Positions 10,941 through 55,653 of a DNA stretch of 64,000 bases are shown piece after piece; within the stretch, counting starts at the first letter, position 1, and the number at the start of each line of letters is the position of its first letter. The notes beneath the pieces were generated by a model, which did not search any database, was not told where the DNA came from, and was given only the letters and a program-made list of their open reading frames with translations. Source of the stretch: an uncultured Planctomycetia bacterium (GTDB taxonomy: Bacteria > Planctomycetota > MHYJ01 > WSZJ01 > CAZWCX01); NCBI GenBank assembly GCA_964632945.1, contig CAZWCX010000020.1:8596-72595 (forward strand), written 5' to 3'. The position numbers were made by a program, and so were the translations under genes.

Positions 10941-13886
10941 TCAACGGTTCTCGGGGCGGGGCAGGAGACGACGGAGCCGCGGCTCCGGCTCGAGGAGCCG
11001 AAGCTCGACTCCGTGCTTGACCGCCTGCCGCAGGCACAGTCCGGCTTCGACGATTTGACCGCATCGTTCATGGGCGCGGGCAAGCGCAAGCCAGGCCTGC
11101 GGAGAGTCCGGATGCACGAGCGCAGCGGCGGCGGCGCGCGCCCGGGCGGGCCCGGGATCTTTCCCGGCAAGGGCCGCGACGGACTCTTCGATCAGTCTGT
11201 GCGCGACGGCCGGCGCGCAGGCGGCCACCCTCGTCCCGACCGGGCCGGCTTCCTCCACGGGGGCAAGAGGGAGCCCGTGTTCGCCCCGCTGCCAGGCCTC
11301 CCAGCGCTCGCCCAGCGCGGGCGGGGCGTACCGCCGGGCGGCTTCCGTGAAGGCCTCGACCGCCGGGCCCTCGCGTCCCGCCGCGATCATGACGAATCCG
11401 AGCGCCACCGCCGGCTCGGGCCGGGCTTGGTCCAGGCGGGCGGCGGCGGCGAGACAGCGCTCGGCCTCGTCCACACGACCCGCGCGCGCATGCAGAATTC
11501 CCGATGCGAACCAGGCTTCGCCATCGCGCGGCCGGGAGGCGATCGCCCGCCCGAGGAACGCTGCGGCTTCGTCGCTCCGACCGAGCCGGAGAGCCAGCCG
11601 GCCGCCGATGAGGGCGAGGAGGCCGTCCTCGCGACGTTCGCTCGACGCCCGGGCGACGGCCTCCGCGGCCTCGCCGGCTCGTCCCGCGTCCGCCAGCGCG
11701 TCCGCGAGCCGGATCCGTTCCGCCCCCGCTTCGGGGGAAGTGCCCTCGCGATCCACCGGGCGGACGAGCGCCGCGCAGGCGCGAGCCGTCAAATCAGGGT
11801 CCGTCCCCCGCCCGGCCGCGACCGCCTCCGCCAGGGTCGCCGGGTCTTCGGGCCCGGCCGCCCATGCGCGCGCGAGCGCGGCCTCGGCCTCCCGCACCCG
11901 CCCCGCCGCGCGGTGGGCCGACGCCAGGTGAGCCCAGAGACTCGCCTCGTCCGGAAGCCGTTCCGCCCAGGTCGCGAGCCGCGTTGTGGGGTCCTGCCCG
12001 TGCCAGCAGCGCAACCGGAACCCGGCCTCGCCCAGCATGCGAATGTCTCGGGCGGCCGGATGCAGTTGGAGTCGGAGCGCGACGTCCAGGGCTTCCGCCG
12101 CCTCCTCCGCCTTTCCCGCCGCCAACAGGACCTCGGCGCGGACCGAAAACGCCGCGGCGCCGCGGGGAGATCCAAGCAGGAGCCGCTCGCTGGTGTCCAG
12201 CGCCTCCCGAAGGTCGGGGACCCCGGCCAGAAGCAGGGCGCGGACGTACACGTACAACACCTCCGGTCGCGCCTCCTGCTCCGCGAGCAGCGCGCGCGCC
12301 GCGACGAGAGCGCCTTCCGCGTCGCCGGCGCGGAGCGACGCGCGAACCCGCGAGGCGAGGGCGAACCCGTGCGCCGGCCGGGCGGAGAGCCGCCGGGCCG
12401 CCTCCCGGCCCGCGGCCACCCGGTCTTCGCACTCGCGCGCATAGCCGCGCTCCAACAGGCGGTCCGCGTACGCCTGGATCCGATACAGCGTCCGATCGGT
12501 GTCCGGGTCGCGCGCCACGAGGATGTCCAGATCCTGCCCGGCGGTCCCCAAGTCGCCGAGAGCCTCCGCAACCACGGCGCGCGTCTGGCGGGCGTCCCAC
12601 AGGTCCGGAGCCTCGGCGACGATCCGGTCCAGCTCTTCACGCAATCGGGCTGCGCGAGCCGCCCAGGTGTCGATCGGTTCCGTCCCGCATGCGTTCCACT
12701 CGTGCAGCACCTCGCGGTAGCGTCCGTGCAGGGTGTCGAGTCGTCTCGCCTCCCGGTCGAGCTTCGCCGCATGCTCCACTTCCAGGACCGAGTAATAGAG
12801 CACCCCCGCACTCACGGTGAGCACCAGCGCGCCCACCGCCGCGGTGAGAGGCAGCTTCCGGCGCGCAACCCGCGCGACCCGTCCCAGGAAAGAGGGCGGG
12901 CGCGCGGCGATCGGCAGCCCTTCCAGGAAGCGAAGAGTGTCGTCCGCGAGGGCCTCCGCGGAGGGGTAGCGGCGCGCCGGGTCCTTCTCCAGGCACTTGA
13001 GGCACAGGGTCTCGACGTCGGCGCTCACATCCGCGTGGAGCCGGCGCGGCGCCTCCGGGAGGGTGTGCACGACGTCGTGCAGCACCCGCGGCGTCGGTCC
13101 GACGAACGGCGGCCGACCGGTCAGAAGCGTGTAGAGCACGGCCCCGAGGGAATACACGTCACTGCGCGCGTCCACCTGCTCGAGGCGACCCAGCGCCTGT
13201 TCCGGCGGCATGTAGGCTGGGGTGCCGAGCAAGGTTCCCTCCAGCGTGAGCAACGATTCGCGCGAGAGGTCCTTGGCGAGCCCGAAGTCGGTGATGAGGA
13301 CCCGGCCGTCCCCGGTCAGCAGCAGGTTCTGGGGCTTGAGGTCGCGGTGGACCACCCCTTCGGCGTGGGCGTAGGCGAGCGCGAGGGCGACTTCGTGAAT
13401 CAGTTCGAGGGCGCGGCGGGGGGTGGGCCGTCCGCGTCGCGCCAGGTCATCGACCGTCTCTCCGATGATATAGTCCATCGAGTAGTAGTGGAGATCCCCA
13501 TCCTGGCCCACGTCATGAATGGCCACGATTCCGGGATGATGCAGACGCGCCGCGGCCTGCGCCTCGCGGTGGAACCGCTGCACCCCCTCCGCGTCGGCAG
13601 GACCCCGGGCGCGCAGCACCTTGAGGGCGACGGTCCGGTTGAGGTCGCGCTGGCGGGCGAGATAGACCACTCCCATCGCGCCCGAGCCGAGCTCTCCCAG
13701 AATCTCATAGGCTCCGATCGATGGCGGAGCCGGCGCCGTGGAGGGGGACGGCGGAGGGACCGCCGGGGCCGCGGCAAGGGCGGTTTCGACCGGTCCCCCC
13801 GACGGCGTCCGGAGGACCGTGGGGTTGACACCCGCAGACGAGTCAGGCGACCCGGCGGGCGCCGGGGGTGTGGCGTCCTGCGGCAT
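10941..13886 (-). CDS. Ser/Thr protein kinase with a C-terminal TM/TPR-like helical repeat region
   Basis: Complete Hanks kinase motifs: GSGAMGVVY, VALKVL, HRDLKPQNLLL, DFGLAKD, GTPAYMPPE. These are followed by a hydrophobic segment and about 550 aa of alpha-helical Ala/Leu/Arg-rich repeats. The start ATG is at 13884-13886 (MPQDATPP), preceded by a GGAGAA SD. Confidence 0.8.
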   Translation of the reverse strand: MPQDATPPAPAGSPDSSAGVNPTVLRTPSGGPVETALAAAPAVPPPSPSTAPAPPSIGAYEILGELGSGAMGVVYLARQRDLNRTVALKVLRARGPADAEGVQRFHREAQAAARLHHPGIVAIHDVGQDGDLHYYSMDYIIGETVDDLARRGRPTPRRALELIHEVALALAYAHAEGVVHRDLKPQNLLLTGDGRVLITDFGLAKDLSRESLLTLEGTLLGTPAYMPPEQALGRLEQVDARSDVYSLGAVLYTLLTGRPPFVGPTPRVLHDVVHTLPEAPRRLHADVSADVETLCLKCLEKDPARRYPSAEALADDTLRFLEGLPIAARPPSFLGRVARVARRKLPLTAAVGALVLTVSAGVLYYSVLEVEHAAKLDREARRLDTLHGRYREVLHEWNACGTEPIDTWAARAARLREELDRIVAEAPDLWDARQTRAVVAEALGDLGTAGQDLDILVARDPDTDRTLYRIQAYADRLLERGYARECEDRVAAGREAARRLSARPAHGFALASRVRASLRAGDAEGALVAARALLAEQEARPEVLYVYVRALLLAGVPDLREALDTSERLLLGSPRGAAAFSVRAEVLLAAGKAEEAAEALDVALRLQLHPAARDIRMLGEAGFRLRCWHGQDPTTRLATWAERLPDEASLWAHLASAHRAAGRVREAEAALARAWAAGPEDPATLAEAVAAGRGTDPDLTARACAALVRPVDREGTSPEAGAERIRLADALADAGRAGEAAEAVARASSERREDGLLALIGGRLALRLGRSDEAAAFLGRAIASRPRDGEAWFASGILHARAGRVDEAERCLAAAARLDQARPEPAVALGFVMIAAGREGPAVEAFTEAARRYAPPALGERWEAWQRGEHGLPLAPVEEAGPVGTRVAACAPAVAHRLIEESVAALAGKDPGPARARAAAAALVHPDSPQAWLALARAHERCGQIVEAGLCLRQAVKHGVELRLLEPEPRLRRLLPRPENR

Positions 13887-14000
13887 CGCGACCGCGTTCT
13901 CCCATCGACGGGTGACGGCAACCGAGGCCCGACCCCCGACCCGCCTTCGGGAGACGGGGAGGGCTTTTCCCCGCATTCGAAGTGCGGCGGGGCCATCCCG

Positions 14001-14282
14001 TCACTCTTGATGCCCCTCGATCTGGATCGTCATCGTCCGGCGCGCCGTTTCCACGCCGTCCCATTCCTCGGTGATCTCGAGCGTCAAGTCGAACATGTCG
14101 ACATGGTAAATGCGCTGGTACTCCTCGGACTTTCCGTCCACGTCCACGGCCCCCTTCATCCGCAGCCAGTATTCGCCCGGCCGCTCCATGTTCTTGGAGG
14201 CCTCCTGGATGGCGAGCTGGATCAACGCCTCCTCGTTTCCCACGCGGATGCGAAACTCGCCGTGGTCCGGTTTCTCGAGCAT
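14001..14282 (-). CDS. Small (93 aa) dodecin-like / DUF1458-like protein
   Basis: MLEKPDHGEFRIRVGNEEALIQLAIQEASKNMERPGEYWLRMKGAVDVDGKSEEYQRIYHVDMFDLTLEI matches the beta-alpha-beta-beta pattern and spacing of dodecin-family proteins. GGAGG lies directly upstream of the ATG at 14280-14282. The rest of track ORF 14001..14909 is R/G-rich and I rejected it. Confidence 0.5.
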   Translation of the reverse strand: MLEKPDHGEFRIRVGNEEALIQLAIQEASKNMERPGEYWLRMKGAVDVDGKSEEYQRIYHVDMFDLTLEITEEWDGVETARRTMTIQIEGHQE

Positions 14283-14449
14283 CGAGAACCTCCGGGCGAG
14301 GAGGACATCGCGCCCTGCGCCTGCGTCGGCGGCCCACGCGCGGGCCGCCGCGTGTCCGTCGGGGGACCGACCCACGGCCCCGGGGAGGTCGGAGCGCCGG
14401 TCCGCGATCCGGACGTCGCGAGACGCAGCGATCCGCCCCCGTCCGCATG

Positions 14450-14740
14450 CTAGTTTGACCTTTCTTCCGTCCCAACGCAAGCCCGCTCCGGCCGCAGGAG
14501 CGATGACTCGACCCCCGGAAGCCGCAGGACCCCGTCGATCCGATACCGAATGCGCACGCCTGCGGGGAACCACTCGAGGTGTAGGTCGCTGGCGTCTCGC
14601 CGAATCGCGTCGAGCAGAACCGTATCGATGAAGGCGCCGCCCGGCCGGTCCAGGCCGGACGGGGCATCGGCTTCGGCCGTCAGATCGAGTACGCCGGTGG
14701 CGGCGCGGGCCGTGATCGGTGCGGGGGCATCCATGAGCAT
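14450..14740 (-). pseudogene. Remnant of a GspE/PilB-type (T2SS/T4P) secretion ATPase gene. Only about 50 aa of the N-terminal region of the ATPase domain remain.
   Basis: AFIDTVLLDAIRRDASDLHLEWFPAGVRIRYRIDGVL closely resembles the conserved PilB/GspE segment (…ILTDAIKRKASDIHIEP…RVRFRIDGVL). The frame then stops after ~20 more residues, and no Walker box follows in any minus frame. Confidence 0.5.
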
Positions 14741-15002
14741 CTTCCTGGTTGAAGACGCGCAGGAGGACGCAAGTGAACGCCCGCCGGCCCGCCGACGGCG
14801 TGATTCGGCGGTGGATCAAGGGCCGCAACGGGTTCCGACCGTCCCCGAGCACGCGACTCCGGCCGCGGCGGCCGGATCCGCCGGACAGAATCGTACGCCA
14901 GGCGCTCACCGGCGCTCATCGGCATCCGAGGAACCCACGGGGTCGAGGACGGCTGGGGCAGCACGCGAGGGAGGCCCCGGCCGGCGGGGACGGTCCTCCG
15001 GG

Positions 15003-16853
15003 TCATCGGCGCGGTCGTGGCGCCGAGGTCGGGTGCTCACCGGCGGGAGGGGTCGTCAGGGCTCCCACGAAGCACGCTCTCCCCCGCTTCTTTCTTCGCG
15101 AAATGGGCGCGACGGTGAATGCCTGCGCGGCGGAGAAGGCCGTCGCGTTTCCCAGCGTATCCCGCGCCCGAATCCTCCAGAACAAGTTCCCGGTGCCGAA
15201 CGACCTCACGGCCGCGCGCACGTGAGGCTCCTCCACCGTGAGCTGGAAGAGCACCGTGTCGAACAGGGCCGACGCCGAGACCTGCAGGTCGTAGTTCAGG
15301 ATCCCGTTCGGATCCGCCGCCGCCGACCAGACGAAGTCCACGAATTCGACCGCGCCGACGTTCACGCCGCCCACCGGAGACTGAGGTACCGGAGCCGCTC
15401 CGGCCGTGGTATCGATCGTGAAATCGGTTTCCGCCGAGTAGTCTCGAATCGCCTCCGCGCGCCCGGAAGGATACTCGCGGCTGAACAGGTCGACTCCCGC
15501 GGCCGCACTCCCGCCATCGCGATAGCGAACCTGCCAGAAGTACGTGCCGTCGGGAAGCGCGGGAATCGTCACCCGCGTGAGGTCGCCGCCGGTCACGCCG
15601 GAGTCGAACACCGTCACCGACCAGTCCGCGGGAGATCCCGCCGCCCGGACCCGCCATTGACTGGCCGTGTGGAGATCGAAGGCCGGAGGACCGGCGGCTC
15701 CATTCGGATCCGCGAAGGCGGAGGAGGACAGGGTCGGTGTCGAAGTCGCCATGAGCGCCCCGGGTGCGGGGCCAAGATTGACCGGCTGCGCGGGGTGGAA
15801 ATTGACCGCCCGGTCGAGGAGCGTTCCCGCGCCGCCGGATGCCCCCGGCGGACCGCCTGGATCGGGGCCCGGAGCGCCGCCGGCCCCTCCGGACGGCACC
15901 GGCGGCAGGATCCCGGTGACGGTGTCGCGAAGAATCTTGATCCGGCCCCCGCCTCCGCCCGCGCCGCCGCCCGAGGGATCGATGCTGGGTCCCGCCCCGG
16001 AGACGCCGCCGGCGCCCGCACCACCGTCCGCGCGCACGATCGCCGCCGCCCCGAATCGCAAGTCCGGCGCGCACAGCAGGATCCCCCCGCCCGAGCCTCC
16101 ACCCCCACCGCCCGCGCCGGTCCCGTCCGCAGGCGCAATCCCCGCATTGCCGCCCGCGCCGTTCATCGACAGCGTCCCGTTCACGAACAACGATTCCTGG
16201 GCGATCAGCAGCAGGCTCGCCCCACCCGCGCCCCCATCCCCGCCCGTCGCTCCGGGGAGGTCTCCGCCACCGCCGCCGCCTCCGGAACCGGGGTTGAGGT
16301 CCTGATCGGGGGGCGGAGCCGCGGGGGTGTTGGCCGCGGCGGCAAACACCGGCGGCGCCGGATTGTCGTGGGCGGGACCGCCGGGGCCCGTGGCGCCGGC
16401 GCCATGCCCCCCCGCTCCGCCATGCCCCCCACCACCGCCACCGTCCCGGCTATTGGCAGCGGCCCCCGTGCCTCCGCCCGCTCCACTCCCGTTCGTCGAT
16501 GGCACCGTGGGAGGACCGCCGATCCCGCCGGCGCCCCCGGCGCCGTCTCCGCGAACCGCCCCGTCGATCACGATCACCCGCGCGCGAATGACCAGTCGAT
16601 TCCCCGTCGAGGGCGCGTCGCCCGTCACCGTCACCGTCACGCCGGTTGAAATCGTAAACGTGTCGATGTTGAAGTACTCCCCCTCCATCGCCTGATCCGC
16701 GGCAATCGTGAGGTTGCCGCCGCCCCCGTCCATCGCGGCATTGGGGCCCGACGGGGCCTGCGCCCGCGCCTCCTGCGGCGCCAACACCCCGAGACAAGCC
16801 CCAAGCCACCCGCACGCGGCGGCGGTGTACCACGCCCGGACCCCGATTCTCAT
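15003..16853 (-). CDS. Large secreted glycine-rich repeat protein with C-terminal Fn3-like domains
   Basis: Signal peptide MRIGVRAWYTAAACGWLGACLGVLAPQEARAQA. About 350 aa of G-rich repeats follow (GGAGG...IxIxA...GxGG, probably beta-helix-like), then two Fn3-like modules (DGTYFWQVRYRD...; ILNYDLQVSA...FWRIRARDTLGNATAFSAAQAFTV). The start ATG at 16851-16853 is preceded by AGGAGG and overlaps the stop of the upstream gene (16850-16852). Confidence 0.6.
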   Translation of the reverse strand: MRIGVRAWYTAAACGWLGACLGVLAPQEARAQAPSGPNAAMDGGGGNLTIAADQAMEGEYFNIDTFTISTGVTVTVTGDAPSTGNRLVIRARVIVIDGAVRGDGAGGAGGIGGPPTVPSTNGSGAGGGTGAAANSRDGGGGGGHGGAGGHGAGATGPGGPAHDNPAPPVFAAAANTPAAPPPDQDLNPGSGGGGGGGDLPGATGGDGGAGGASLLLIAQESLFVNGTLSMNGAGGNAGIAPADGTGAGGGGGGSGGGILLCAPDLRFGAAAIVRADGGAGAGGVSGAGPSIDPSGGGAGGGGGRIKILRDTVTGILPPVPSGGAGGAPGPDPGGPPGASGGAGTLLDRAVNFHPAQPVNLGPAPGALMATSTPTLSSSAFADPNGAAGPPAFDLHTASQWRVRAAGSPADWSVTVFDSGVTGGDLTRVTIPALPDGTYFWQVRYRDGGSAAAGVDLFSREYPSGRAEAIRDYSAETDFTIDTTAGAAPVPQSPVGGVNVGAVEFVDFVWSAAADPNGILNYDLQVSASALFDTVLFQLTVEEPHVRAAVRSFGTGNLFWRIRARDTLGNATAFSAAQAFTVAPISRRKKRGRACFVGALTTPPAGEHPTSAPRPRR

Positions 16854-17845
16854 CGCCGAACCCCTCCTGTCATCCATCCCGAATCTCCCGCCTCGAGGGC
16901 CAACGTTTGCCAGGCATTTCGAGCCGCCCCGCGGAGGTCTTCCCCCGCGGTTCGGCTCATCCACTGCAGCGAATCCAGAACCGCCGGGGTCACCGGTGGC
17001 CCGGGAAAGGCGCGACCGAGGCGCACCAGGGTCGTGAGGGCCTGGTCGGACGCCATGCCGCCGAGCCCGATCACCACGGCGAGGAGCGCCGGGGGCCCGA
17101 GCGCGCTGTCCGGGTGGAGCGCCGCCCCGGCCAGGCGCATCAGCACGCATTCCGCTTGCGGGTTCCCCACGCTCCTCAGCACCCGGCCCAGGGCTACCGC
17201 TTCCGCAAGGTCCCGGACCCCCTCCACCTCACCGGCCACCTGCGCCGCACACTCGGGGTGCACCCGGATCAGTCCGGCGATCGCCCCGATCACCCGAGGT
17301 TCCACGAACGGGGCGCCGGACGGCAAGGCCGCTTCCCGGCGACGCAAGCGACGAAACAGCATCGACACGAGGTCCTTCGGAGAGACGTGCGCGTCCCCAT
17401 CCGATCGCCGCTCCCCGGACCAGGGCGCGACCGCGCGGGGAACGCCCCCCCACCCGAACGCATCGGGCCCCTCCGCAAGCGGACTGGGATCCGATTCCAG
17501 CCCGCGTTGCCGCTGACGGTCTCTTCCCGGAGGGAGGGGCGTGACCGGCCGTGTCTCCCCGGCCGCCGTCGCCGATCCGCTCCCGACCGGCGCCGTGGCA
17601 ACGCCCCCCGCCGGCGTCGTTCGGCGGCGCCCCTCGCCCGGGCGCACCGAGCGGCGTCCGCCCGACCCGATCGACCGGCCGGGGCGCGCGCCGTCCTCCG
17701 GGGCCGCTTCCGGCGATCGCGTCCCCCCCCGACCGTCGCATGGCGCCCGGCGCTGCGCGTCGTCGTGCCGAAGTGTCACGATTGAAACGCCCGCGGAAAG
17801 AGCCAGGAAGACGGCCATCATCAGCTGCCGCATTCGCGCGTCCAT
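16850..17845 (-). CDS. Hypothetical membrane-anchored protein with a C-terminal helical (HEAT/ARM-like) domain
   Basis: The start ATG (17843-17845) encodes MDARMRQLMMAVFLALSAGVSIVTL, a TM or signal anchor. A Gly/Arg-rich linker and a ~170-aa alpha-helical C-terminus follow. The gene is translationally coupled to the Gly-rich protein gene. Confidence 0.5.
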   Translation of the reverse strand: MDARMRQLMMAVFLALSAGVSIVTLRHDDAQRRAPCDGRGGTRSPEAAPEDGARPGRSIGSGGRRSVRPGEGRRRTTPAGGVATAPVGSGSATAAGETRPVTPLPPGRDRQRQRGLESDPSPLAEGPDAFGWGGVPRAVAPWSGERRSDGDAHVSPKDLVSMLFRRLRRREAALPSGAPFVEPRVIGAIAGLIRVHPECAAQVAGEVEGVRDLAEAVALGRVLRSVGNPQAECVLMRLAGAALHPDSALGPPALLAVVIGLGGMASDQALTTLVRLGRAFPGPPVTPAVLDSLQWMSRTAGEDLRGAARNAWQTLALEAGDSGWMTGGVRR

Positions 17846-17853
17846 ACGACCTC

Positions 17854-18204
17854 CTATCGATGCTGCCAGCACCGACCGCCGCCCTTGACCATCCGACGGC
17901 ACGGGGCGCCGGTCGTCTTCGTCGGCGCGCCGCACGGATGGCTCATCCCGGAATCCGCCCCGGGGTCCGGCCTTGGCTCGGATCCGGGGCGGACCGCCGG
18001 GGCGTCGACCCGACCCGTCCGTTCCCATCGCTCGATCCGCGCCTCGAGTTGCTCGACGCGCAGCCACAACCGGTCGAACTCTTCGGCCGTGGGACGCCCG
18101 GCAGCAAGGGGGGCCGGATCCTCCTCTGCTCCCACGATCGCCCATCCGGCGAGCAGGACGAGCAGCGCCACGAGAACGGGTCCGTATCGACGGGGTGCGG
18201 GCAT
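17854..18204 (-). CDS. Small protein with N-terminal TM/signal, coiled coil and C-terminal Cys cluster
   Basis: MPAPRRYGPVLVALLVLLAGWAIVGA, then EEFDRLWLRVEQLEARIERWERTG (coiled coil), then the C-terminus CGAPTKTTGAPCRRMVKGGGRCWQH. The ATG at 18202-18204 is preceded by GGAGGAG. It is the first gene of the three-gene operon. Confidence 0.5.
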   Translation of the reverse strand: MPAPRRYGPVLVALLVLLAGWAIVGAEEDPAPLAAGRPTAEEFDRLWLRVEQLEARIERWERTGRVDAPAVRPGSEPRPDPGADSGMSHPCGAPTKTTGAPCRRMVKGGGRCWQHR

Positions 18205-18480
18205 GGGTGTCTCCTCCAATCGACAGACGAAGGGCGATTCCGAACCTCCCACCCCCGCGGCTTCCTGCCGCGGCGCACCGGCAGCGGGCGACGGCCGATT
18301 CCCCGGGAGCCCCCGGCGCGCCGGTGGGCGGAGACTACGACAACGGATGGACAGGATAGGTCCCGCAGGGCGGAAAATTTTTTCGGCCCCGGGATTTCGG
18401 GCTTGTGGGACCTCCCCTGTCACTCGGGTCCGCTACACTTCCTCCCGTCCGAATGCCGGTGCGAACGCGAAGGGACCGCC

Positions 18481-20889
18481 ATGGAAGATTCGCCGCTCTT
18501 CCTCGGGATCGACTTCGGGACTTCGAACTCGTCGGTCGCCCACGTCTACCATGATCCCCGCTACGCAGACCAAAAGGTCATTCCCGTACAGACGGTTCCC
18601 ATCCCCCTGGACGAGGCGGGGAACGTCGCCACCAACCGGATGCCGACGCTCCTTTCCACGCGGTTCGACGATCGGCGCGCCAAAGGATTTCTCGTCGGCT
18701 GGGAGTTCTTCCAGCGCTTCGGACGCCGCAAGAAGTCTCCCCTTCTCCGCCGCGGTCGCGACCTCTTCGAATCGGTGAAGTCCGACCTCGGCTCGTTCCG
18801 CATCTACCCGTACGCGGCCGCGCCGGAGTGCAACATGCCCGAGAAGGTGGCCGAGGCGGTGTTCGCGCGGTTGCTGCGGGAGGTCACGCCCCGACTTCCG
18901 GGAGCCAGCCCGGGCGCGGTCCGCACCGTCATCACGGTCCCCGCCTCGCTCAACGCCGAGGCGCGCCGCCAGACCCTCGAAGCCGCCGTGCGGGCCGGGC
19001 TCGTCGCCGACCGCGTCGAGCTGATCGATGAACCGATCGCCGCCCTGCTCGATCTCCTCAACGACCCGCGCTCCTGCGCCGTGCTCGCGCCGGGAAAGCC
19101 GACCCACGTCCTCGTGTTCGATTACGGCGGCGGAACCCTGGACCTCTGTCTGGTCCGGTGCGCATACGACTCATCCTGCTCGAGCGGACTTACCGCGGAA
19201 ACGCTGGCGATCTCCCGATATCGGCGCAACGGCGGGAATGATGTCGATCGGCAGGTGATGGCGCGCGTCGTCTGGCCTCAGGTCGAAGAGCAGCTGGGGA
19301 TCCTGCGGACCGGGTTGCGCGCGGACGTGCGCCAGGCGGTCGAGGACACCCTGACACCCACGGTCGCCCGGGGGCTCAAGGAAGGCATCTGCAAGCGGAT
19401 CGCCCGGGACGTCAGTGCAGGGAGACCTCTCTCCCGGCTGTCCGCAGACCTGAGCGAAATCGTGAAGTCCGACGGGACGTTCACCGACGAAGGCCTCCCG
19501 GCGCCGATCGAGGGAAAATTCAAGATCACCAAGGCCCAGTTCGACCAGGTGATGTCCCCGTTCCTGACCGCGCCCTCCCCGGATCCCGCGACGTGGGGCG
19601 ACGAACGCGTTCGTCACTCGCTGGTCCTGCCGATCCTCGAGACCCTCGACAAGGCGGGTCTCGGTCCGGGCGATCTCGACGTGCTCGTACTCCACGGCGG
19701 GAGCTGCCGGAACCCTCATGTCCAAGCGGGCCTGCTGGGGATCCTGGCCGAGGCGGACGGCCGATTTGCGCAAACCCGCATCGTGGAGACCCCCGACCTC
19801 GACACCTCCGTGGCCCGGGGCGCCGCCCTGGCCTGCTATTGGAAACACGCTCGAAAGGTCGAACTGATCCGGCCCGTGGTCGCGGAAGATGTGGGCATTC
19901 TGACGCTCGGGGAACAACCGGTCTGCCTGGTCGAGAGCGGCACGCCGCTGCCGTTTCCCGAACTGGGCATCCATGCGCACCCGGAAGACTTCTTCGTCCC
20001 GCAGGCCGGCCAGCGCGAGATGCTCGTCCCCTTCTATACGGGCCGCCATGAACAGCGGCGGTCGGGGTGCGTGCGCCTGCCGTTGCCCGACGGCGTGCGC
20101 AAGGGGGAGATCGTCCGGATCAAGCTGAGCATCGACCGCGACAAGGTCTTGCACTGGTGGTTCAGCCTCTCGGGCGGCGAGTTCCGCTCGGCCCCCTCCC
20201 TCGACGACCCCTGGACCCTCCGGGAGCCCGACGTGGCGGGTCAGGCGGTCCAGAGGCATCGGAAGGAGATGCGTGACCATCTGAGCCGGCACGGATCGGT
20301 TCCGCGCGGGATGGCGGTGCGGGAAGCGCTGCTTCTCTATCACGCGGGAGATCTGGCCGAGGCGGAACTGGCGATCTTCGATTGCGTTGCCGGCGGCTCC
20401 CACGATGCCGACACGGCCAATGCGCTGTCCCTGATCTACGGCCACACCGAGGATGCGGCGGCGGAGATGTACTTCGCCGAAATGGCGGCCCGGCTTGCGC
20501 CTCGGGATCCGATCATGCTGGGCAACTATGGCGTGGTGCTCGACGACAACGGCCGCGGGGACGAAGCGGTGGCCATGCTTCGCGCGGCGCTCTCGCTCGC
20601 GCCGGACCTCTCGTATCTTCACGAGCGCCTGGGGGACCGCCTGCGCGCGGGACGGGACGAGGAAGCGGCCGTGCGGGAGTATCGCGAAGCACTGCGGATC
20701 GTCGAGCGTCGGCTGTTGGAGCGACCGGAGCGTCCGCAGAATTGGAAGGAAGCCGCCCGATTGCACTACAAACTCGGCGAGTACGATCAGGCGCGGGACG
20801 CCGCCGGTCGCGCCTCGGACGCCGGGCTCAACGAACTGTACGGCGGAGACCATCGCATGCGGATCGCCGGACCGGACAGCGGATTCTGA
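18481..20889 (+). CDS. Atypical Hsp70-family ATPase (NBD + SBD-beta-like region) with a C-terminal TPR domain
   Basis: Hsp70 phosphate-1 motif LGIDFGTSNSSVAHV and the DxGGGTxD motif VLVFDYGGGTLDLCLV. A beta-sandwich-like region follows (IVRIKLSIDRDKVLHWWFSL), with TPR-like repeats at the C-terminus. The ATG is at 18481. The 310-aa N-terminal extension of track ORF 17551..20889 overlaps minus-strand genes and I rejected it. Confidence 0.75.
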   Translation: MEDSPLFLGIDFGTSNSSVAHVYHDPRYADQKVIPVQTVPIPLDEAGNVATNRMPTLLSTRFDDRRAKGFLVGWEFFQRFGRRKKSPLLRRGRDLFESVKSDLGSFRIYPYAAAPECNMPEKVAEAVFARLLREVTPRLPGASPGAVRTVITVPASLNAEARRQTLEAAVRAGLVADRVELIDEPIAALLDLLNDPRSCAVLAPGKPTHVLVFDYGGGTLDLCLVRCAYDSSCSSGLTAETLAISRYRRNGGNDVDRQVMARVVWPQVEEQLGILRTGLRADVRQAVEDTLTPTVARGLKEGICKRIARDVSAGRPLSRLSADLSEIVKSDGTFTDEGLPAPIEGKFKITKAQFDQVMSPFLTAPSPDPATWGDERVRHSLVLPILETLDKAGLGPGDLDVLVLHGGSCRNPHVQAGLLGILAEADGRFAQTRIVETPDLDTSVARGAALACYWKHARKVELIRPVVAEDVGILTLGEQPVCLVESGTPLPFPELGIHAHPEDFFVPQAGQREMLVPFYTGRHEQRRSGCVRLPLPDGVRKGEIVRIKLSIDRDKVLHWWFSLSGGEFRSAPSLDDPWTLREPDVAGQAVQRHRKEMRDHLSRHGSVPRGMAVREALLLYHAGDLAEAELAIFDCVAGGSHDADTANALSLIYGHTEDAAAEMYFAEMAARLAPRDPIMLGNYGVVLDDNGRGDEAVAMLRAALSLAPDLSYLHERLGDRLRAGRDEEAAVREYREALRIVERRLLERPERPQNWKEAARLHYKLGEYDQARDAAGRASDAGLNELYGGDHRMRIAGPDSGF

Positions 20890-20907
20890 CCCGGGAGGAA
20901 CAGGCCA

Positions 20908-21621
20908 ATGGCGAAATCAGCCCAATCGGGCCGGCGCATCGCCGGGCGCCGGGGAACTTCCGCGCGACGCGGATCCGCGTCCCGGCGCGCCCGCCGTCCG
21001 GCGCGTTCGCCGCGCGGGAAGACCGCACGGAAGGCCGCGGGCGGGGTCCGTCCCGCGAAGGTCACGCGCAAGCTCGCAAAGCCCTCGCGCCCGCCACGGT
21101 CGCCCGCCGCATCCCGCGCGCCGGCGAGTTCCGTCGACTCGCAGCGGATCCGGGAGATCCTGGTGCGCCTGGATCGAGCGCACGCCGATCTGGTCGCGAT
21201 CGGCGCCGAACTGCGCGCCGCCGCGCACGGGATCGGCGCCGCCGCCTGCGACACGTTGCGCGGGGAATGGCTGCGCAGCCTCCTGGAACGGGACCTCCTT
21301 CGGGACTTGCAGGTGGCGCGGCAGGGAGCGACGCCGGGGGAGAACCCGGCCGCCGCAGCCGGAGGGGATCGCCTCCTGCCGGAATCGATGTTGAATTGGC
21401 TGTGCGAGAAGCTCGACCTGTTTCCGTTGCTGACCGCCGGTGAAACGATCGAGGTCCCCGCGGCCTCCCTCGGCGATTTCGACTTCGACGGGTCCGTCCC
21501 CGCGGACGCCGGCGGCCTGATCGCCCTGCGGGTCGTCGTTCCCGGCCTGCGGCTCCGGGTGGGAAAGACCGTCGTCCTCCCGCCCCGCGTGGAGCGGATC
21601 GAACCGGTCGCGCCGACGTAG
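20908..21621 (+). CDS. Hypothetical protein with an Arg/Lys-rich N-terminal half and a mixed-composition ~120-aa C-terminal domain. It is a possible partner of the Hsp70-like gene.
   Basis: The ATG at 20908 has GGGAGGA 8 nt upstream and lies 19 nt after the Hsp70-like stop. The C-terminal half has mixed composition (ESMLNWLCEKLDLFPLLTAGETIEVP...), unlike the RRRR-type overlapping antisense ORFs. Confidence 0.45.
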   Translation: MAKSAQSGRRIAGRRGTSARRGSASRRARRPARSPRGKTARKAAGGVRPAKVTRKLAKPSRPPRSPAASRAPASSVDSQRIREILVRLDRAHADLVAIGAELRAAAHGIGAAACDTLRGEWLRSLLERDLLRDLQVARQGATPGENPAAAAGGDRLLPESMLNWLCEKLDLFPLLTAGETIEVPAASLGDFDFDGSVPADAGGLIALRVVVPGLRLRVGKTVVLPPRVERIEPVAPT

Positions 21622-33852: not shown

Positions 33853-34320
33853 CGAGACCGCGGGAGAGCGCTCCTCCCGCCGCGGCCGGATCGGGCCGAT
33901 GGCCACCCAGACGCCGCGCTCTCGTGGGCCGGCGGGAGGACAGGGCGTTCGGGTTTACGACCTCGATCCGCTGGTCCCGGACAACTTGCGTGCCCGTGAC
34001 TCCTGCGCCGGGATCGCGGACGACCGGAATTCGATCCGCCCTTGACCATGGCAGGCTGCGGCCGATACGCTGCTCGGAGCAGGCTGCGTGAGGCGTGGCG
34101 CTCCCGCATGAACGCGGCATCCTCGCTCGGGAACTCGACCCGGTGCGCCTCACGGTCGACGCCCGAAGCGAAGTCAGAGCCCTGGCCTTTCCGGAGGAGG
34201 CTCTGGAGCGCACCCAGAGTCGGGCGCCGGCGGTGTACGAGCACCGGATGCGCGCAGGGGCGATCGGACGACCCAGGGGGCGTGCGTGGACGGATGCGCG
34301 ACCGCGCTCCAGGAGAAGGC

Positions 34321-35244
34321 ATGAACGACGGGAAGCCCGGAGAGGCCAAACCCCTCGTGCCACGCGAGGCCCCCGCCTGCCAGGTCTGCGGCGAACCGCT
34401 TCACGGACGCGCGGTGGTGGAGTGCTGCCAGTGCGGCACTCCGCACCACCTGTCGTGCTGGCGGTTCAACAAGCGCTGTTCCATCTATGGCTGCGGGAGC
34501 CGAAGTTGCCGCCAGCCCGCCCCCTCGCCCGCCCTGAAGTCGGTCGGCCCGTTCGAAGTGAAGGTGAACCCAAGGTACCGGTCCTTCACTCCCCTGGACG
34601 CGATCTCCTTCACCACCGTGGTCGGGATCGCCGGGCTGATGATGCTCCTGGGCCTGCCGGTGGACGGCGTGGTGGGCCCGACCGCGCTCTTGCTGATCCC
34701 GGTGCTGATCGCCCTGCTCGCGGGGATCGATGAACGTCTTTCGGTCGATCCGACCCGCGGGACGATCGACCGCTCCCTGCGGATCAGAGGGCGGACGGTA
34801 TGGTCGGTTCCGGACTGGCTCCGGTTTTCCCGGGTGGTGGAACTCCATGTTCACCGCTGGACCCTGGACGGCATACGGCCGACGCAGATGTGGCAGTTGC
34901 AGGCGCTCCTCGACGACGGGTCCCGCACGAAGATCCTGACCGACTCCCATCCGGGCGGGCAGGGGGAACCCGAACTTCCCCGCATCGCCGAACAACTGGC
35001 GGAGATGGTCGATTGCACGGTTCGGCGGTTCGACGGCGCGGAGCCGCCGGATCGCGCCGAACTCGACGAGGCGGTGACCGCCTGGCGCGATTCCCGGGCC
35101 CTCCCGGCCGCGCCGGAGGCCGCCGGGCCGGATGCTCCCGCCGGCAGCGGCACCCCCGTTCGCGAGATCGTCTCCCCGTCCGCGGACGGCGAGCCGACGA
35201 CCGCGCGAGAGGGCGATTCCGGGACCGACGCCGAACGGCGCTGA
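34321..35244 (+). CDS. Membrane protein with an N-terminal RING/PHD-like treble-clef zinc finger
   Basis: CQVCGEPLHGRAVVECCQCGTPHHLSCWRFNKRCSIYGCGS gives the spacing C-x2-C-x11-C-x2-C-x4-H-x2-C-x6-C-x4-C. Two TM segments follow (ISFTTVVGIAGLMMLLGLPV; LLLIPVLIALLAGI). The ATG at 34321 has GGAGAAGG upstream. Confidence 0.55.
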   Translation: MNDGKPGEAKPLVPREAPACQVCGEPLHGRAVVECCQCGTPHHLSCWRFNKRCSIYGCGSRSCRQPAPSPALKSVGPFEVKVNPRYRSFTPLDAISFTTVVGIAGLMMLLGLPVDGVVGPTALLLIPVLIALLAGIDERLSVDPTRGTIDRSLRIRGRTVWSVPDWLRFSRVVELHVHRWTLDGIRPTQMWQLQALLDDGSRTKILTDSHPGGQGEPELPRIAEQLAEMVDCTVRRFDGAEPPDRAELDEAVTAWRDSRALPAAPEAAGPDAPAGSGTPVREIVSPSADGEPTTAREGDSGTDAERR

Positions 35245-35302: not shown

Positions 35303-38300
35303 CTACCCCTTTCCCTTCTTCACCGAGATGCCGGCCTCCTTGAGCCGGTAGTAGAACGTGCTGCGCGCGAGGCCGAGTCGCTGCGCGGCCTTTTCCACGC
35401 TTCCGCCGGCTTCGTCGAGCACGGCCTTGTACACGTCCGCCACGATCTGGTCGAAGGTCTTGTCGCGGATCGAGACCATTCCCTTCATGTCGATGGCCGC
35501 GCTCGAGCCGCCCCGCCGGCGGCCGCCGCCGTCCGCTCCGACCCCCGCTCCGGCGGGTCGATAGTTCGCGATCTCGGGGCTGATGTCCTCGAGCGTGATC
35601 GCCTCGCCGGCGAAGGCGAGTGCCCGCTTCACCTCATTTTCCAATTGCCGGATGTTCCCCGGCCACTCGAAGTCGACGATCCGCCGCATGGCGTCGCGCG
35701 CGACTTCCTTTTTCGGCGTGCCGCTCTCCGCGGCGTACTTCTCCAGGAAGTGCTCGATCAGCAGCGGCAGGTCGTCCCGGCGCTCCCGCAGCGGCGGCAG
35801 CCGCAGCGTGAAGACGTTCAGGCGGTAGTAGAGGTCCTCGCGGAACGTCCCCTCCTCCACCATCTTCTTCAGGTCCCGGTGGGTCGCGGCGATGATGCGG
35901 ACGTCCACCTTGATCGACTTCTTTCCGCCGACCGGACGGATCTCGCCCTCCTGGAGCACGCGCAGGAGCTTCTTCTGCATCTCCAGGCCCATCTCGCCGA
36001 TCTCGTCGAGGAAGAGGGTGCCGCCGTTGGCGAATGCGAACAACCCCTCCTTGTCTTTGTCCGCGCCGGTGAACGAGCCCTTGACGTGGCCGAAGAGCTC
36101 GCTTTCGAGCAGCGATTCCGGCAGCGCGCCGCAGTTTTCCGCGACGAACGGCTTGTCCTTGCGGGGGCCGTTGAAGTGGATCGCCTTGGCGACCAGTTCC
36201 TTTCCGGTGCCGCTTTCGCCGTGGATGATCACGGGGAAGTGGGTCTCGGTGATCTTGTCGAGGACCTTGAACAGTTCCTGCATCGCCTTGGAGCGGCCGA
36301 CGATGTTGCCGTAGGAGTACTTCGTGCGCAGCTGCTCCAGGCTGGTGGTGAGCGTGCGCTTGAGGAAGTCGGCCTCCTCCTTCTGGCGCGCGTACAGGCG
36401 CGAGTTTTCGATCGGGGCGGCGATCTTGTCGGCGAACTGGGCGAGCAGCTCCCGGTCCTCCTCGGTGAAGCGCTTGTTCCCGGCCAGATTATCCATGTAG
36501 ACGACGCCGATGGTCTCGCCTTCGAGGTGGATCGGCACCGACAGGATCGAGCGGATCTGCAGGTCCATGATCGAGTCCTGGCCGCGGAACTGGCTTTCGG
36601 CCAGCGCGTCGGTGACGACCGCGGGCTCGCCGGTGCGCGCGACCTGCTCGACGATGGTGCTCGAGAACTCGAACTGCGGAGAGCGGATCTCCTCGTCGTT
36701 GAAGTTGAGCGCAGTGACGGGTTTCAGCTTGCCGTCGACGCCGCGCAGCATGATGAAGCCGCGCTCGGCGCGAGTGACCTGGAGCATCATGCGCATGGTC
36801 AGTTCGAGGACCTTGTCGAGGTCGAGGCCGGCGTTGATGACCTTCATGAGCATGCCGAGGACGGTGATGCCGTCGCGGGAGACGACGAGCTGGTCGAGGT
36901 CGGCGTCCTGGGCGACCTTGCGCTGGACTTCGCGTTCGCTCTCGACGCCGGCCTCGAAGGTGAAGACGCAGTTGCGGCCGTTGCGTTTGGCGTTGTAGAC
37001 CGCCTCGTTCAGGCGTTCGCGTGTGGAAGTCAACGTCTGCGCGTCGGTCGGGCAGGTCAGGACGCCGACGCTGACGGTGACGTTGACGTCGCGGCCCGCG
37101 GCCTGGAAGGGCCAGGTGGCGATTTCGGTGCGCAGGCGGTTGGCCAGACGGACGGCCTCCACGCGTTCGGTCTCGGGCAGGACGACATCGAACTCGTCGC
37201 CTGCGCCGCGGCCGAGGACGTCGACGTTGCGGATCCCCTTGCGCAGGATGCCGCAGACCTCGCGCAGGATGTCGTTGCCCGCTTCGGCGCCGTGGAAGTC
37301 GTTGATCACCTGGAAGCGGTCCAGGTCGACGCGCAGGATCGAGACCAGGCGGCTGTAGCGCCGGCAGCGGTCGAGTTCGCGCTCGAGGATGCCGTCCACG
37401 TAGGCCGGAACGAAGGCGCCGCTCACGCGGTCGAAGACCATCTGCTGGTGCAGTCGCGCGTTGTCGAGGGCGACCGCGGCGTGGTCGGTCATGACCAGGA
37501 GGAGCGCGGCCTCGCGCTCGGCGAAGGCCTTTTCGGTGAACAGGCTGTCGAGGTAGAGCGCCCCGGCGATCGCCCCGCGCATGCGGATCGGGACGCAGAT
37601 GATCGAGCGCACGCGCAGTCCGGCGACGTCGCCGAGCGGAGCGAGGCGCTTGTCGGTCTGGGCGTTCGGCGTGAGCAGGATCTCGCCGGTCTCGATCACA
37701 CGTTCGGCGATCCCCTTGGAGATCTTGGTCGCCGGATCGTCGATGTCGCGACTGCCCAGGTTGCGCGAGACCTCGAACTGGAGGCGCCCGCCGGTGGCGC
37801 CGCCGGCGCCCCGCAGAATGAGGAAGCCGCGGTCGGCCCCGGTGATCTCGATCGCGGTGTCGATGATGTACTCGAGGACCTTGCGCGGATCCTGTTCCGC
37901 GCCGATCCGGCGGCCGACCTCGACCAGGCGCACGAGCTGCGAGAAGTCCTTCCCCACCGGCGAACCGGCGTGGTCGCGGACCAGGTTGGCGAACCAGCGG
38001 TCGGCCCCGGCGGAGGTGAAGTCGGCGGCGAGCGTGGTGGTCTCGTCCTTGCGCGACTGCACCTCGGTGTCGATTTTGGCCGCGAGTTCGACGGCCGCCT
38101 TGCGCCGGGGGTCGCGGGCGTACGCCTCGCGGTACTCTTCGGGCAGTTTGGCGGCGACCTGGGCAAAGACCTTGCGCACCTCCTCCGCGTGGAAGCCCGC
38201 CTTGAGCGGGTGGTTGCGCTTGCGCAGGACCTCGGCGAGCCCGGTGTGCGCCTGCCAGAGGAATTCCGGGTTTTTCACCGACTGGGCGAGTTCGCGCGCG

Positions 38301-42043: not shown

Positions 42044-42442
42044 CCTTGTTCCTGGAATTTGGACTCGGGGACAGCCTGTACCCCAGGCGGGTGGATGGGT
42101 TCCGATTGCGTCGGGGGGGAGGAATCAGCGTCGGCAGAGACGTTACCAGATTCTGGATGCTGGTGTCAAAGAGGTTCCAAGAAGTTGCATCCACTTCCGG
42201 GCGATCGAAAGGCGGCAGGGAAGAGGCCGGACCCTGGGGTTCGCATCCGGGAGCACCCGCGACCCCGCAGCGGCGGAAAGTCCAGGGCGTCCCGGCCGAC
42301 GTGCCGGATCCGGGGACGCCCGGCGCGCGCAGGCCACCGAGCGGCCGGCTCGCGAACCGGGGGTCGGGGGAACATCTCCCTCGCTCCGCCCGGGGCGCCC
42401 CGGACGGGAACCTTCGTCCCCCGTCGCTTCAGGACACCCGCG

Positions 42443-55558: not shown

Positions 55559-55653
55559 CGCGTTTTTGTTCCCGCGCGGGGGGAGTCTCCCGGTAGAATC
55601 TGCGCATCCGCCCGTCCGGCGTCCCGGGCGGGCGGACGTTGCGAGCGACCCCC

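Follow-up and report, generated by a model that had tools for sequence, protein, structure and literature searches.

Hsp70-type chaperones are encoded in several described conflict systems of bacteria, and these systems, together with DnaK-GrpE, are the closest known counterparts of the two-gene operon considered here, which lies in a 64,000-nt stretch of DNA (hereafter, the window) from an uncultured Planctomycetia bacterium (contig CAZWCX010000020.1, positions 8,596 to 72,595) and encodes an Hsp70-family protein with tetratricopeptide repeats (Hsp70-TPR) followed by a small basic partner. CnuD of Type III CoCoNuT (CnuD/CnuCD) contains defence-linked Hsp70 nucleotide-binding and substrate-binding domains (NBD and SBD) with helical, HEAT-like repeats in the lid region; it acts with McrB/McrC homologues and HEPN RNases, has degenerate Walker A-like motifs, and is proposed by its authors to bind RNA (eLife 2024, PMC11090510). 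The GAP1-N2 systems are multi-gene, GTPase-centred conflict systems, mostly of actinobacteria and firmicutes, that encode Hsp70 and GrpE together, sometimes with TPR proteins, and include FNIII and DnaJ components (Kaur et al., 2020, PMC7159879). The EACC1-protease defence modules place an Hsp70 without the canonical lid in an antiviral context; their DnaK-like domains are ~50% identical to DnaK and are fused to a protease or effector (bioRxiv 2025, PMC12642450). Genes embedded in Hma operons are often defence systems themselves (seven of nine tested candidates protected), and the main text of the paper that describes them makes no mention of Hsp70, DnaK, GrpE or chaperones (bioRxiv 10.1101/2024.01.29.577857). 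A literature search found no published description of an Hsp70-TPR/GrpE-like pair.

The operon resembles each of these systems in part. It shares with DnaK-GrpE an actin-fold NBD with the same catalytic residues, a hydrophobic linker and a beta-sandwich SBD, and the product of its second gene is predicted to have a long helix, a bundle of helices and a beta domain; however, TPR repeats and a conserved C-terminal tail stand where DnaK has its helical lid. Like CnuD, the Hsp70 has helical repeats in the lid region, but its ATPase motifs are invariant and a GrpE-like partner is present; no neighbourhood listing contains McrB-like GTPase or McrC (DUF2357) families, and membership of CoCoNuT as a CnuD was rejected because McrBC genes are missing nearby and the ATPase motifs are intact. 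In contrast to the GAP1-N2 systems, the pair has no GTPase and its TPR repeats are fused to the Hsp70; in contrast to the EACC1 modules, Hsp70-TPR is ~18-20% identical to DnaK, carries TPR repeats, has a putative exchange factor of its own and lacks an effector. Elsewhere the pair forms a two-gene module between hmaA and hmaB, as the Hma-embedded candidates do, although the copy in the window lies inside no system. From its sequences the pair is predicted to work like DnaK-GrpE, yet by no curated threshold is either protein DnaK, HscA or canonical GrpE. The evidence set out below leads us to favour, with some reserve, a mobile operon that joins a self-contained, TPR-capped Hsp70 to its own GrpE-type factor and has a role in conflict with phages or mobile elements.

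The Hsp70-TPR protein and its constant neighbour

The Hsp70-TPR protein begins with MEDSPLFLGIDFGTSNS and contains VFDYGGGTLD, and in the family alignment its start, MEDSPLFLGIDFGT, coincides with the start of every homologue. Pfam HSP70 (PF00012) matches at 51 bits against a cut-off of 20.6, and several TPR families match over ~aa 616-781, whereas the NCBIfam equivalogs score 55 bits against 648 for DnaK and 47 against 620-709 for HscA; scores of ~50 where more than 600 is required mark a member of the Hsp70 family that is neither DnaK nor HscA, as an earlier note on this DNA had concluded from the TPR tail. A profile built from 30 homologues matches DnaK, Hsc70 and BiP at E 1e-33 to 1e-24, with alignments that run from the NBD through the linker to the beta substrate domain (e.g., DnaK ~105-557). 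The AlphaFold2 model (pLDDT, for predicted local distance difference test, 90.6; predicted template modelling score 0.88) has strands at aa 471-563 and ten helices at aa 585-787, and its top Foldseek matches in the PDB are full-length, ATP-bound (open) DnaK (4b9q, E 3e-26, ~18% identity, 620-720 columns).

Among the 30 family members, with equivalences to DnaK taken from hidden Markov model (HMM) alignments, G13/T14 of phosphate-1 are invariant and D11 is kept in >=90%; K100 (DnaK K70) and E184 (DnaK E171) are invariant, and so are D214/G216/G218/T219/D221 of phosphate-2 and G406/G407/N411/P412 of the adenosine motif. Because the catalytic and nucleotide-binding residues are thus invariant or nearly so, Hsp70-TPR is predicted to be an active ATPase. 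The ordinary alpha-helical lid (SBD-alpha) is missing, and the exchange of lid for TPR repeats that the earlier note had described is borne out by Pfam, which assigns aa 585-787 to TPR, and by the regularity of the ten helices in the model; at most, the first of them could equal lid helix A. The TPR array is the least conserved domain (mean pairwise identity 0.34, vs. 0.44 for the NBD), whereas the C-terminal tail is better conserved than both (0.48), its GGDxxxxIAGPDSG motif being retained by most orthologues.

A homologue of the partner, detected with the partner HMM, lies directly downstream and on the same strand at all 22 orthologous Hsp70-TPR loci, all of which are in metagenome-assembled genomes (MAGs) or unbinned metagenome contigs. 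Where the genes are called in homologous loci they are 10 nt apart or overlap, and loci with more similar Hsp70-TPR proteins also tend to have more similar partners (r = 0.74 between the pairwise identities; none of 5000 Mantel permutations reaches this value), with the partner evolving faster (mean identity 27%, vs. 42% for Hsp70-TPR). The pair is almost certainly a conserved two-gene unit, and both the dedicated partnership surmised from gene order and the co-occurrence of Hsp70-TPR with the small basic protein in other genomes, put forward as a check on it, hold at every locus. A word-indexed homologue search with the partner returned only the query itself; conservation was first evident in the ORFs (open reading frames) 3' of two homologous Hsp70-TPR genes, which are 40-44% identical to partner residues ~75-237. 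An exhaustive profile search of 1.84 billion representatives delimits a rare partner family of 168 clusters (at 50% identity), nearly all 150-250 aa long. The pair is a horizontally mobile operon, with copies in MAGs of Verrucomicrobiota, Planctomycetota/Phycisphaerae, Acidobacteriota/Vicinamibacteria, Kiritimatiellia and Bdellovibrionaceae. No orthologue occurs in the viral contigs of IMG/VR, where the Hsp70s are distant ones (21-28% identity); in that collection, therefore, phages do not carry the module.

Both genes are real. The window is ~70% GC and thus has long chance open frames on every strand (78 long open frames are listed in 14 kb); homologues of both proteins are found elsewhere, however, so neither ORF is such a chance frame. 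The GC contents at the three codon positions (GC1/2/3; 0.72/0.47/0.84 for Hsp70-TPR and 0.76/0.60/0.85 for the partner) show the third-position excess typical of real genes.

Several variants of the pair were met in the homologous loci. Two apparent fusions of Hsp70 and partner were rejected: the ORF in L010 is, by a frame check, an out-of-frame open frame typical of high-GC DNA, and that in L016 (4758-5741, in a MAG of Verrucomicrobia subdivision 3), where Hsp70-TPR residues 1-289 are in frame with the C-terminal part of the partner, is an operon deletion remnant. In L003 an extra, partial partner beta domain (15741-16082) lies 2.4 kb downstream of the intact pair, amid CHAT-protease/TPR genes. 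An Hsp70-TPR-AAA variant (~1095 aa; P0078 at L105 1278-5178, P0079, P0094) has a classical AAA+ domain fused after the TPR repeats and retains the polybasic GrpE-like partner; its L105 copy adjoins the conjugation genes TrbC and VirB3. The AAA fusion is more suggestive of protein remodelling than of RNA binding. Distant paralogues (~25% identity; P0101, P0103, P0104, P0106, P0108) have an N-terminal NERD nuclease or HEPN_Swt1 (Swt1-like HEPN RNase) before the Hsp70 module, and some of them also have TPR repeats; no GrpE-like partner was detected beside the distant Hsp70-like loci examined.

The partner as a probable remote relative of GrpE

In the AlphaFold2 model of the partner, residues 75-237 are predicted with confidence and those before them are disordered (pLDDT about 50-58 and no secondary structure at aa 1-74); the ordered part comprises a helix of 53 residues, some short helices and a small beta domain (aa 169-237, pLDDT 84-96). 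The partner had been described from its sequence as having an Arg/Lys-rich N-terminal half and a compact C-terminal domain; the N-terminus is indeed basic but covers about a third of the protein (the first ~74 residues), and the rest is, in the model, this succession of helices and beta domain. In the window partner the 70 residues preceding the conserved domain include 24 Lys or Arg and no Asp or Glu, and a Lys/Arg-rich tail is found in all 22 orthologues (median ~32 aa, mean 36% Lys + Arg, 1.6% Asp + Glu) even though its sequence drifts, whereas the N-terminus of GrpE is acidic. Electrostatic pairing of this tail with an acidic TPR array was considered and rejected, the net charge of the TPR repeats being only ~-5 in the family and -8 in the window copy, which is not striking. 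The beta domain carries the family motif PGW(K/R)..G...P(R/K)V, the Gly of which is the sole invariant column of alignment A3; by eye the motif resembles KGY..G...RPA.V of GrpE.

Single-sequence searches with the partner find no match in Pfam, NCBIfam, PADLOC or PHROGs. When its model is compared with 350,542 PDB chains by Foldseek, human GrpEL1 in complex with mortalin (9blt_B) ranks first, at a probability of 0.96 and E 0.018, and Thermus GrpE (3a6m_A) second, at a probability of 0.80; the alignments cover 163-167 columns, and no other chain has a probability above 0.1. A direct hhalign comparison of the partner family with a reference alignment of 12 canonical GrpE sequences, taken from annotated grpE genes, scores 27 (P = 0.005) and covers E. 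coli GrpE 100-197, including the beta domain with its KGY...R motif; 42 reversed or column-shuffled controls reach at most 16.4. The exhaustive search also recovers a long-form subfamily of 290-375 aa (P0262, P0276, P0282, P0283, P0289, P0294, P0297, P0257) with an N-terminal helical domain of ~170 aa instead of the basic tail. The C-terminal 170 aa of the long form match GrpE at a probability of 93% (E 2.7e-7, 116 columns, E. coli GrpE 72-190) and the window's partner family at E 2.3e-16 in profile-profile comparison, and the merged family matches GrpE at E 7.7e-5, with reversed or shuffled controls scoring no more than 16.9. One long-form member weakly matches Pfam GrpE (PF01025) at E 0.008 (16 bits, under the 25.8 cut-off), and weak reciprocal matches link the long form to a small GrpE HMM (E 2e-4) and a Streptomyces GrpE to the merged HMM (E 0.007). 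In the only long-form locus recovered (L106 995-3246), the start of the gene overlaps the stop of a gene for a 379-aa protein of metallo-beta-lactamase fold, and the contig ends right after it.

Some of these results count against kinship with GrpE. The direct signal (Foldseek E 0.018; hhalign P 0.005) is weak, and the fold matches (E 0.018-0.08, TM 0.25-0.40) are not significant alone, the low TM being due to a long helix that is oriented differently from that of GrpE. The partner lies under the Pfam GrpE threshold, which neither the window protein nor 19 orthologues approach even at E <= 10, and the partner profile finds no GrpE among PDB sequences, only noise at E >= 0.2. The significant link depends on the long form, whose single locus is a 3.3-kb contig, and the window copy has Leu for the family Trp in the PGW motif, together with a two-residue insertion. 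By profile-profile comparison, and in keeping with the predicted fold, the partner is nonetheless probably a GrpE homologue, one too divergent for current family models to recognise. The nucleotide-exchange-like activity guessed at in the earlier note gains support from the same two lines of evidence, and homology together with gene pairing makes it reasonably likely that the partner acts as an exchange factor.

If it did not, the small protein could instead be the effector of the pair, a polybasic nucleic-acid-binding or toxic protein built on a co-opted GrpE scaffold, which Hsp70-TPR would restrain and then release on infection, as in toxin-antitoxin-chaperone or abortive-infection logic. 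The persistence of the polybasic tail in 22 of 22 partners, the faster evolution of the partner and the lack of any other effector are in keeping with such a role. The conserved part of the protein, however, is the GrpE-like helical and beta module and not the tail, and the long-form subfamily has no basic tail at all; GrpE folds are not known in any role other than that of Hsp70 exchange factor, which also counts against an effector. We consider this alternative improbable.

Divergent GrpE-like ORFs were also detected with the small GrpE HMM (E 1e-8 to 7e-6) in MAGs of Burkholderiales, Eremiobacterota, Xenobia and Propionibacteriaceae (L057 5156-5917, L058 2785-3510, L060 4932-5693, L062 11619-12380, L082 3282-4097), four of the five lying 1-2 kb downstream of other noncanonical Hsp70-like genes. 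Private Hsp70/GrpE pairs, this suggests, are a wider theme.

Neighbourhoods of the pair and its possible role

The earlier note had proposed a chaperone devoted to folding or secreting the Gly-rich and secreted proteins encoded divergently from the pair (14001-18204, minus strand). An all-against-all comparison of the 22 loci removes this proposal, since only Hsp70-TPR and its partner are universal and homologues of the ORFs flanking the window pair occur near none of the 21 other copies. The divergent layout and the common 276-bp intergenic region, which speak for such a function, are seen in this genome alone, whereas the genes upstream of the pair at other loci encode methyltransferases, helicases, sulfatases and similar proteins. 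The Gly-rich-operon ORFs themselves have a weaker coding signal (GC3 0.73-0.78, vs. ~0.84 in neighbours), match no Pfam or PHROG family, and have uncertain exact boundaries. A link to these proteins is very improbable; the Hsp70-like gene occurs in unrelated neighbourhoods, and these are mostly anti-phage defence islands.

With neighbours named by Pfam and PADLOC, at least eight different types of defence system adjoin the pair across the loci. The list includes Shango (SngA/B/C, with DUF87 and DUF4007 genes; L001), BREX (BrxE, BrxA, BrxB, BrxC and PglX; L084), DISARM (DrmD and DrmMI; L011), DrmD with a type IIG enzyme (L015), HKD-SNF2 with a type IIG restriction-modification enzyme (L013), a type III restriction enzyme (L017), Hhe/PDC-S37 (L012), AbiEii with a DNA methylase and a large helicase (L102), E1-like/BubE with an integrase (L101), and CHAT/TPR genes (L003 and L088, the latter with SNF2-Mrr). 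PIN, Fic and transposase genes are found in L104, and conjugation genes mark L105 as a conjugative element. The closest association is with Hma: HmaA and HmaB are encoded in both L086 and L103, and HmaC in L086, where the order is hmaA-[Hsp70-TPR]-[partner]-hmaB-hmaC and both outer junctions overlap, the first by 4 nt and the last by 10 nt (HmaA 1651 bits, HmaB 1548, HmaC 1122). L103 has the same gene order with gaps of 76 and 173 nt, and its HmaA and HmaB are 75 and 59% identical to those of L086. Because the operon lies beside or inside anti-phage systems at these other loci, conflict with phages or mobile elements is its likeliest role, although we hold the case for that role to be about evenly balanced.

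One way to account for these neighbours is that the pair is an accessory, which assembles, activates or recycles SNF2-helicase/methyltransferase complexes (Hma, DISARM, BREX, type IIG/III restriction-modification) and is placed on DNA by the basic tail. SNF2-type helicases are encoded within 10 kb of the pair at 8 of 22 loci, methylase-based systems dominate the neighbours, and the pair is co-oriented inside the Hma operon, with overlapping junctions in L086. SNF2/methylase defence-type homologues accompany 6 of 16 orthologous loci as opposed to 4 of 51 other Hsp70-like loci (Fisher p = 0.009), in a rough control that excludes self-hits and takes Hsp70-like loci, not the genome-wide background, as its baseline. 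Over half of the loci, including the window, have no such helicase nearby, however; the neighbouring systems are of unrelated types, which a free-standing module fits better, and Hma-embedded genes are usually independent systems (bioRxiv 10.1101/2024.01.29.577857). An accessory role therefore seems unlikely to us, if somewhat less so than an effector role for the partner.

Another possibility is that the pair is an ordinary, specialised proteostasis paralogue similar to the orphan Hsp70 HscC, carried as mobile stress-tolerance cargo with its own exchange factor and with no immune role, in mobile islands that merely collect defence genes. This is doubtful, if less readily dismissed than an accessory role. 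It would explain the intact Hsp70 chemistry and substrate domain, the integrases, transposases and conjugation genes at several loci, the non-defence neighbours in the window and in L087, and the lack of an effector or PADLOC match. It would not explain so well why, at two related loci, hmaA and hmaB enclose the pair with junctions that are tight or overlap, why defence systems of so many types adjoin it, why paralogous clades bear NERD or HEPN nucleases, or why its distribution, unlike that of DnaK-GrpE, is rare, patchy, centred on defence islands and known only from MAGs and metagenomic contigs.

Several observations stand against the reading of the pair as a self-contained Hsp70 machine used in conflict. 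Neither window protein matches any model of PADLOC-DB 2.0 (including the PDC candidate models) at E <= 0.01, and the pair includes no recognisable nuclease or toxin effector. Only the homologues in L086 and L103 are embedded in Hma, several loci are related to each other, so that their contexts are not fully independent, and the enrichment described above is measured against a rough baseline. The neighbours in L087 are mostly housekeeping genes, and the window pair is an orphan copy among signalling genes. In contrast to DnaK-GrpE, the pair has no linked J-protein, no DnaJ family occurring among the neighbours at any examined locus, and Glu180 aligns by HMM with DnaK R167, a known J-domain contact; the host's own DnaJ may serve Hsp70-TPR.

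On the reading that we favour, a mobile, self-contained chaperone operon active in conflict, the mechanism may be sketched as follows. The first gene would supply the engine, with its intact ATPase centre, hydrophobic linker, beta-sandwich domain, about five TPR repeats and GGDxxxxIAGPDSGF tail. By analogy with DnaK-GrpE, the partner would dimerise through its long helix, and its beta domain would dock on the NBD, open the nucleotide cleft, free ADP and reset the Hsp70. Composition and context suggest that the variable TPR array and the beta-sandwich domain would choose the protein client and that the polybasic tails would bind the complex to a polyanion, for which DNA or RNA is the likeliest candidate; the conserved C-terminal tail may engage, in cis, either the substrate cleft or the groove of the TPR repeats. 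As its output, the complex would use ATP to capture or remodel a protein of the invader or one related to defence, with the pair working either autonomously or as an add-on to helicase/methylase defences.

In its strongest form this proposal makes the pair an autonomous anti-phage or anti-plasmid system, driven by a chaperone engine and not by a nuclease, NADase or pore. The TPR-Hsp70 would capture an invader protein, the GrpE-like dimer would tether the complex to nucleic acid, or bind acidic DNA-mimic anti-restriction proteins, and reset the ATPase, and ATP-driven sequestration or unfolding would protect the cell. We advance this version only tentatively, at about the same level as the proteostasis alternative. 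Were it true, the pair could also shield neighbouring methylation-based defences (Hma, DISARM, BREX, restriction-modification).

The operon in its window and what it may mean

The features of the locus are collected in the table. The Shine-Dalgarno sequence noted earlier between the two genes is present (GGAGG at 20894-20898, 9 nt before the ATG), in a spacer that is one nucleotide shorter than the 19 nt first given. The intergenic region upstream had been called a divergent promoter region; the divergent layout is confirmed by the likely start of the minus-strand gene at 18204, whereas a consensus scan of the region found no match to a sigma-70-like promoter or a terminator. No tRNA genes were found.

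Table. Coordinates in the window of the Hsp70-TPR operon and its parts, with the evidence for each.
Feature	Position	Strand	Evidence
Divergent intergenic region	18205..18480	.	Between Hsp70-TPR gene and minus-strand gene with likely start 18204
Hsp70-TPR gene, 802 aa + stop	18481..20889	+	ORF map, Pfam, GC3, homologues, model
Nucleotide-binding (actin-fold ATPase) domain, aa 1-460	18481..19860	+	Complete catalytic set in 30 family members
Interdomain linker and beta-sandwich substrate-binding domain, aa 461-580	19861..20220	+	HMM alignment to DnaK/Hsc70, model strands, Foldseek
Helical TPR array in place of Hsp70 lid, aa 585-787	20233..20841	+	Pfam TPR_2/TPR_9/TPR_12; ten model helices
Conserved C-terminal tail ending GGDHRMRIAGPDSGF	20842..20886	+	GGDxxxxIAGPDSG motif, identity
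18-nt spacer with Shine-Dalgarno GGAGG	20890..20907	+	Sequence read
Partner gene, polybasic GrpE-like protein, 237 aa + stop	20908..21621	+	ORF map, HMM, model, profile comparison
Disordered Lys/Arg-rich N-terminal tail, aa 1-74	20908..21129	+	pLDDT, composition
Long helix (aa 75-127) and short helices (aa 130-168), predicted stalk and bundle of helices resembling GrpE	21130..21411	+	Model, Foldseek, hhalign
C-terminal beta domain, aa 169-237, motif here PGLRLRVGKTVVLPPRV	21412..21618	+	Model, hhalign to E. coli GrpE

The signalling genes that surround the window copy encode a Ser/Thr kinase-TPR protein, GGDEF, a P-type ATPase, histidine kinases (among them a hybrid one), response regulators, two proteins with tandem Usp and a sigma-54 activator. 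The kinase (10941-13976, minus strand), of 1011 aa with a long TPR region, is encoded 4.5 kb upstream of the pair. A 2272-aa chain (35303-42124, minus strand) unites kinase, cyclic-di-GMP and enhancer-binding modules in an unusual fusion, namely a Ser/Thr kinase, an AAA_16 ATPase, MalT-type TPR, GGDEF, two GAF domains, a sigma-54 activator and HTH_8. The window also encodes a protein with a prokaryotic RING finger (Prok-RING_1; 34000-35244, plus strand) and an asparaginase fused to C-terminal ankyrin repeats (55597-57108, plus strand).

The analysis provides a function-level annotation for a partner family of ~170 clusters that are listed only as "hypothetical protein" with no Pfam domain: a probable GrpE-type factor, too divergent for current models, that is paired with a TPR-capped, lid-less Hsp70. 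Should the pair be no more than a mobile stress chaperone, this corrected annotation would still stand, and the link to the Gly-rich operon would still be gone. With only two genes in ~3.1 kb, present in the defence islands of five or more bacterial lineages and, at two related loci, inside Hma, the pair is a credible candidate defence module and a candidate for chaperone-based immunity. As a minimal Hsp70 system that occurs in nature, with TPR repeats for a lid and apparently no J-protein, it may also offer a handle on the separate contributions of lid, J-domain and exchange factor to the Hsp70 machine.

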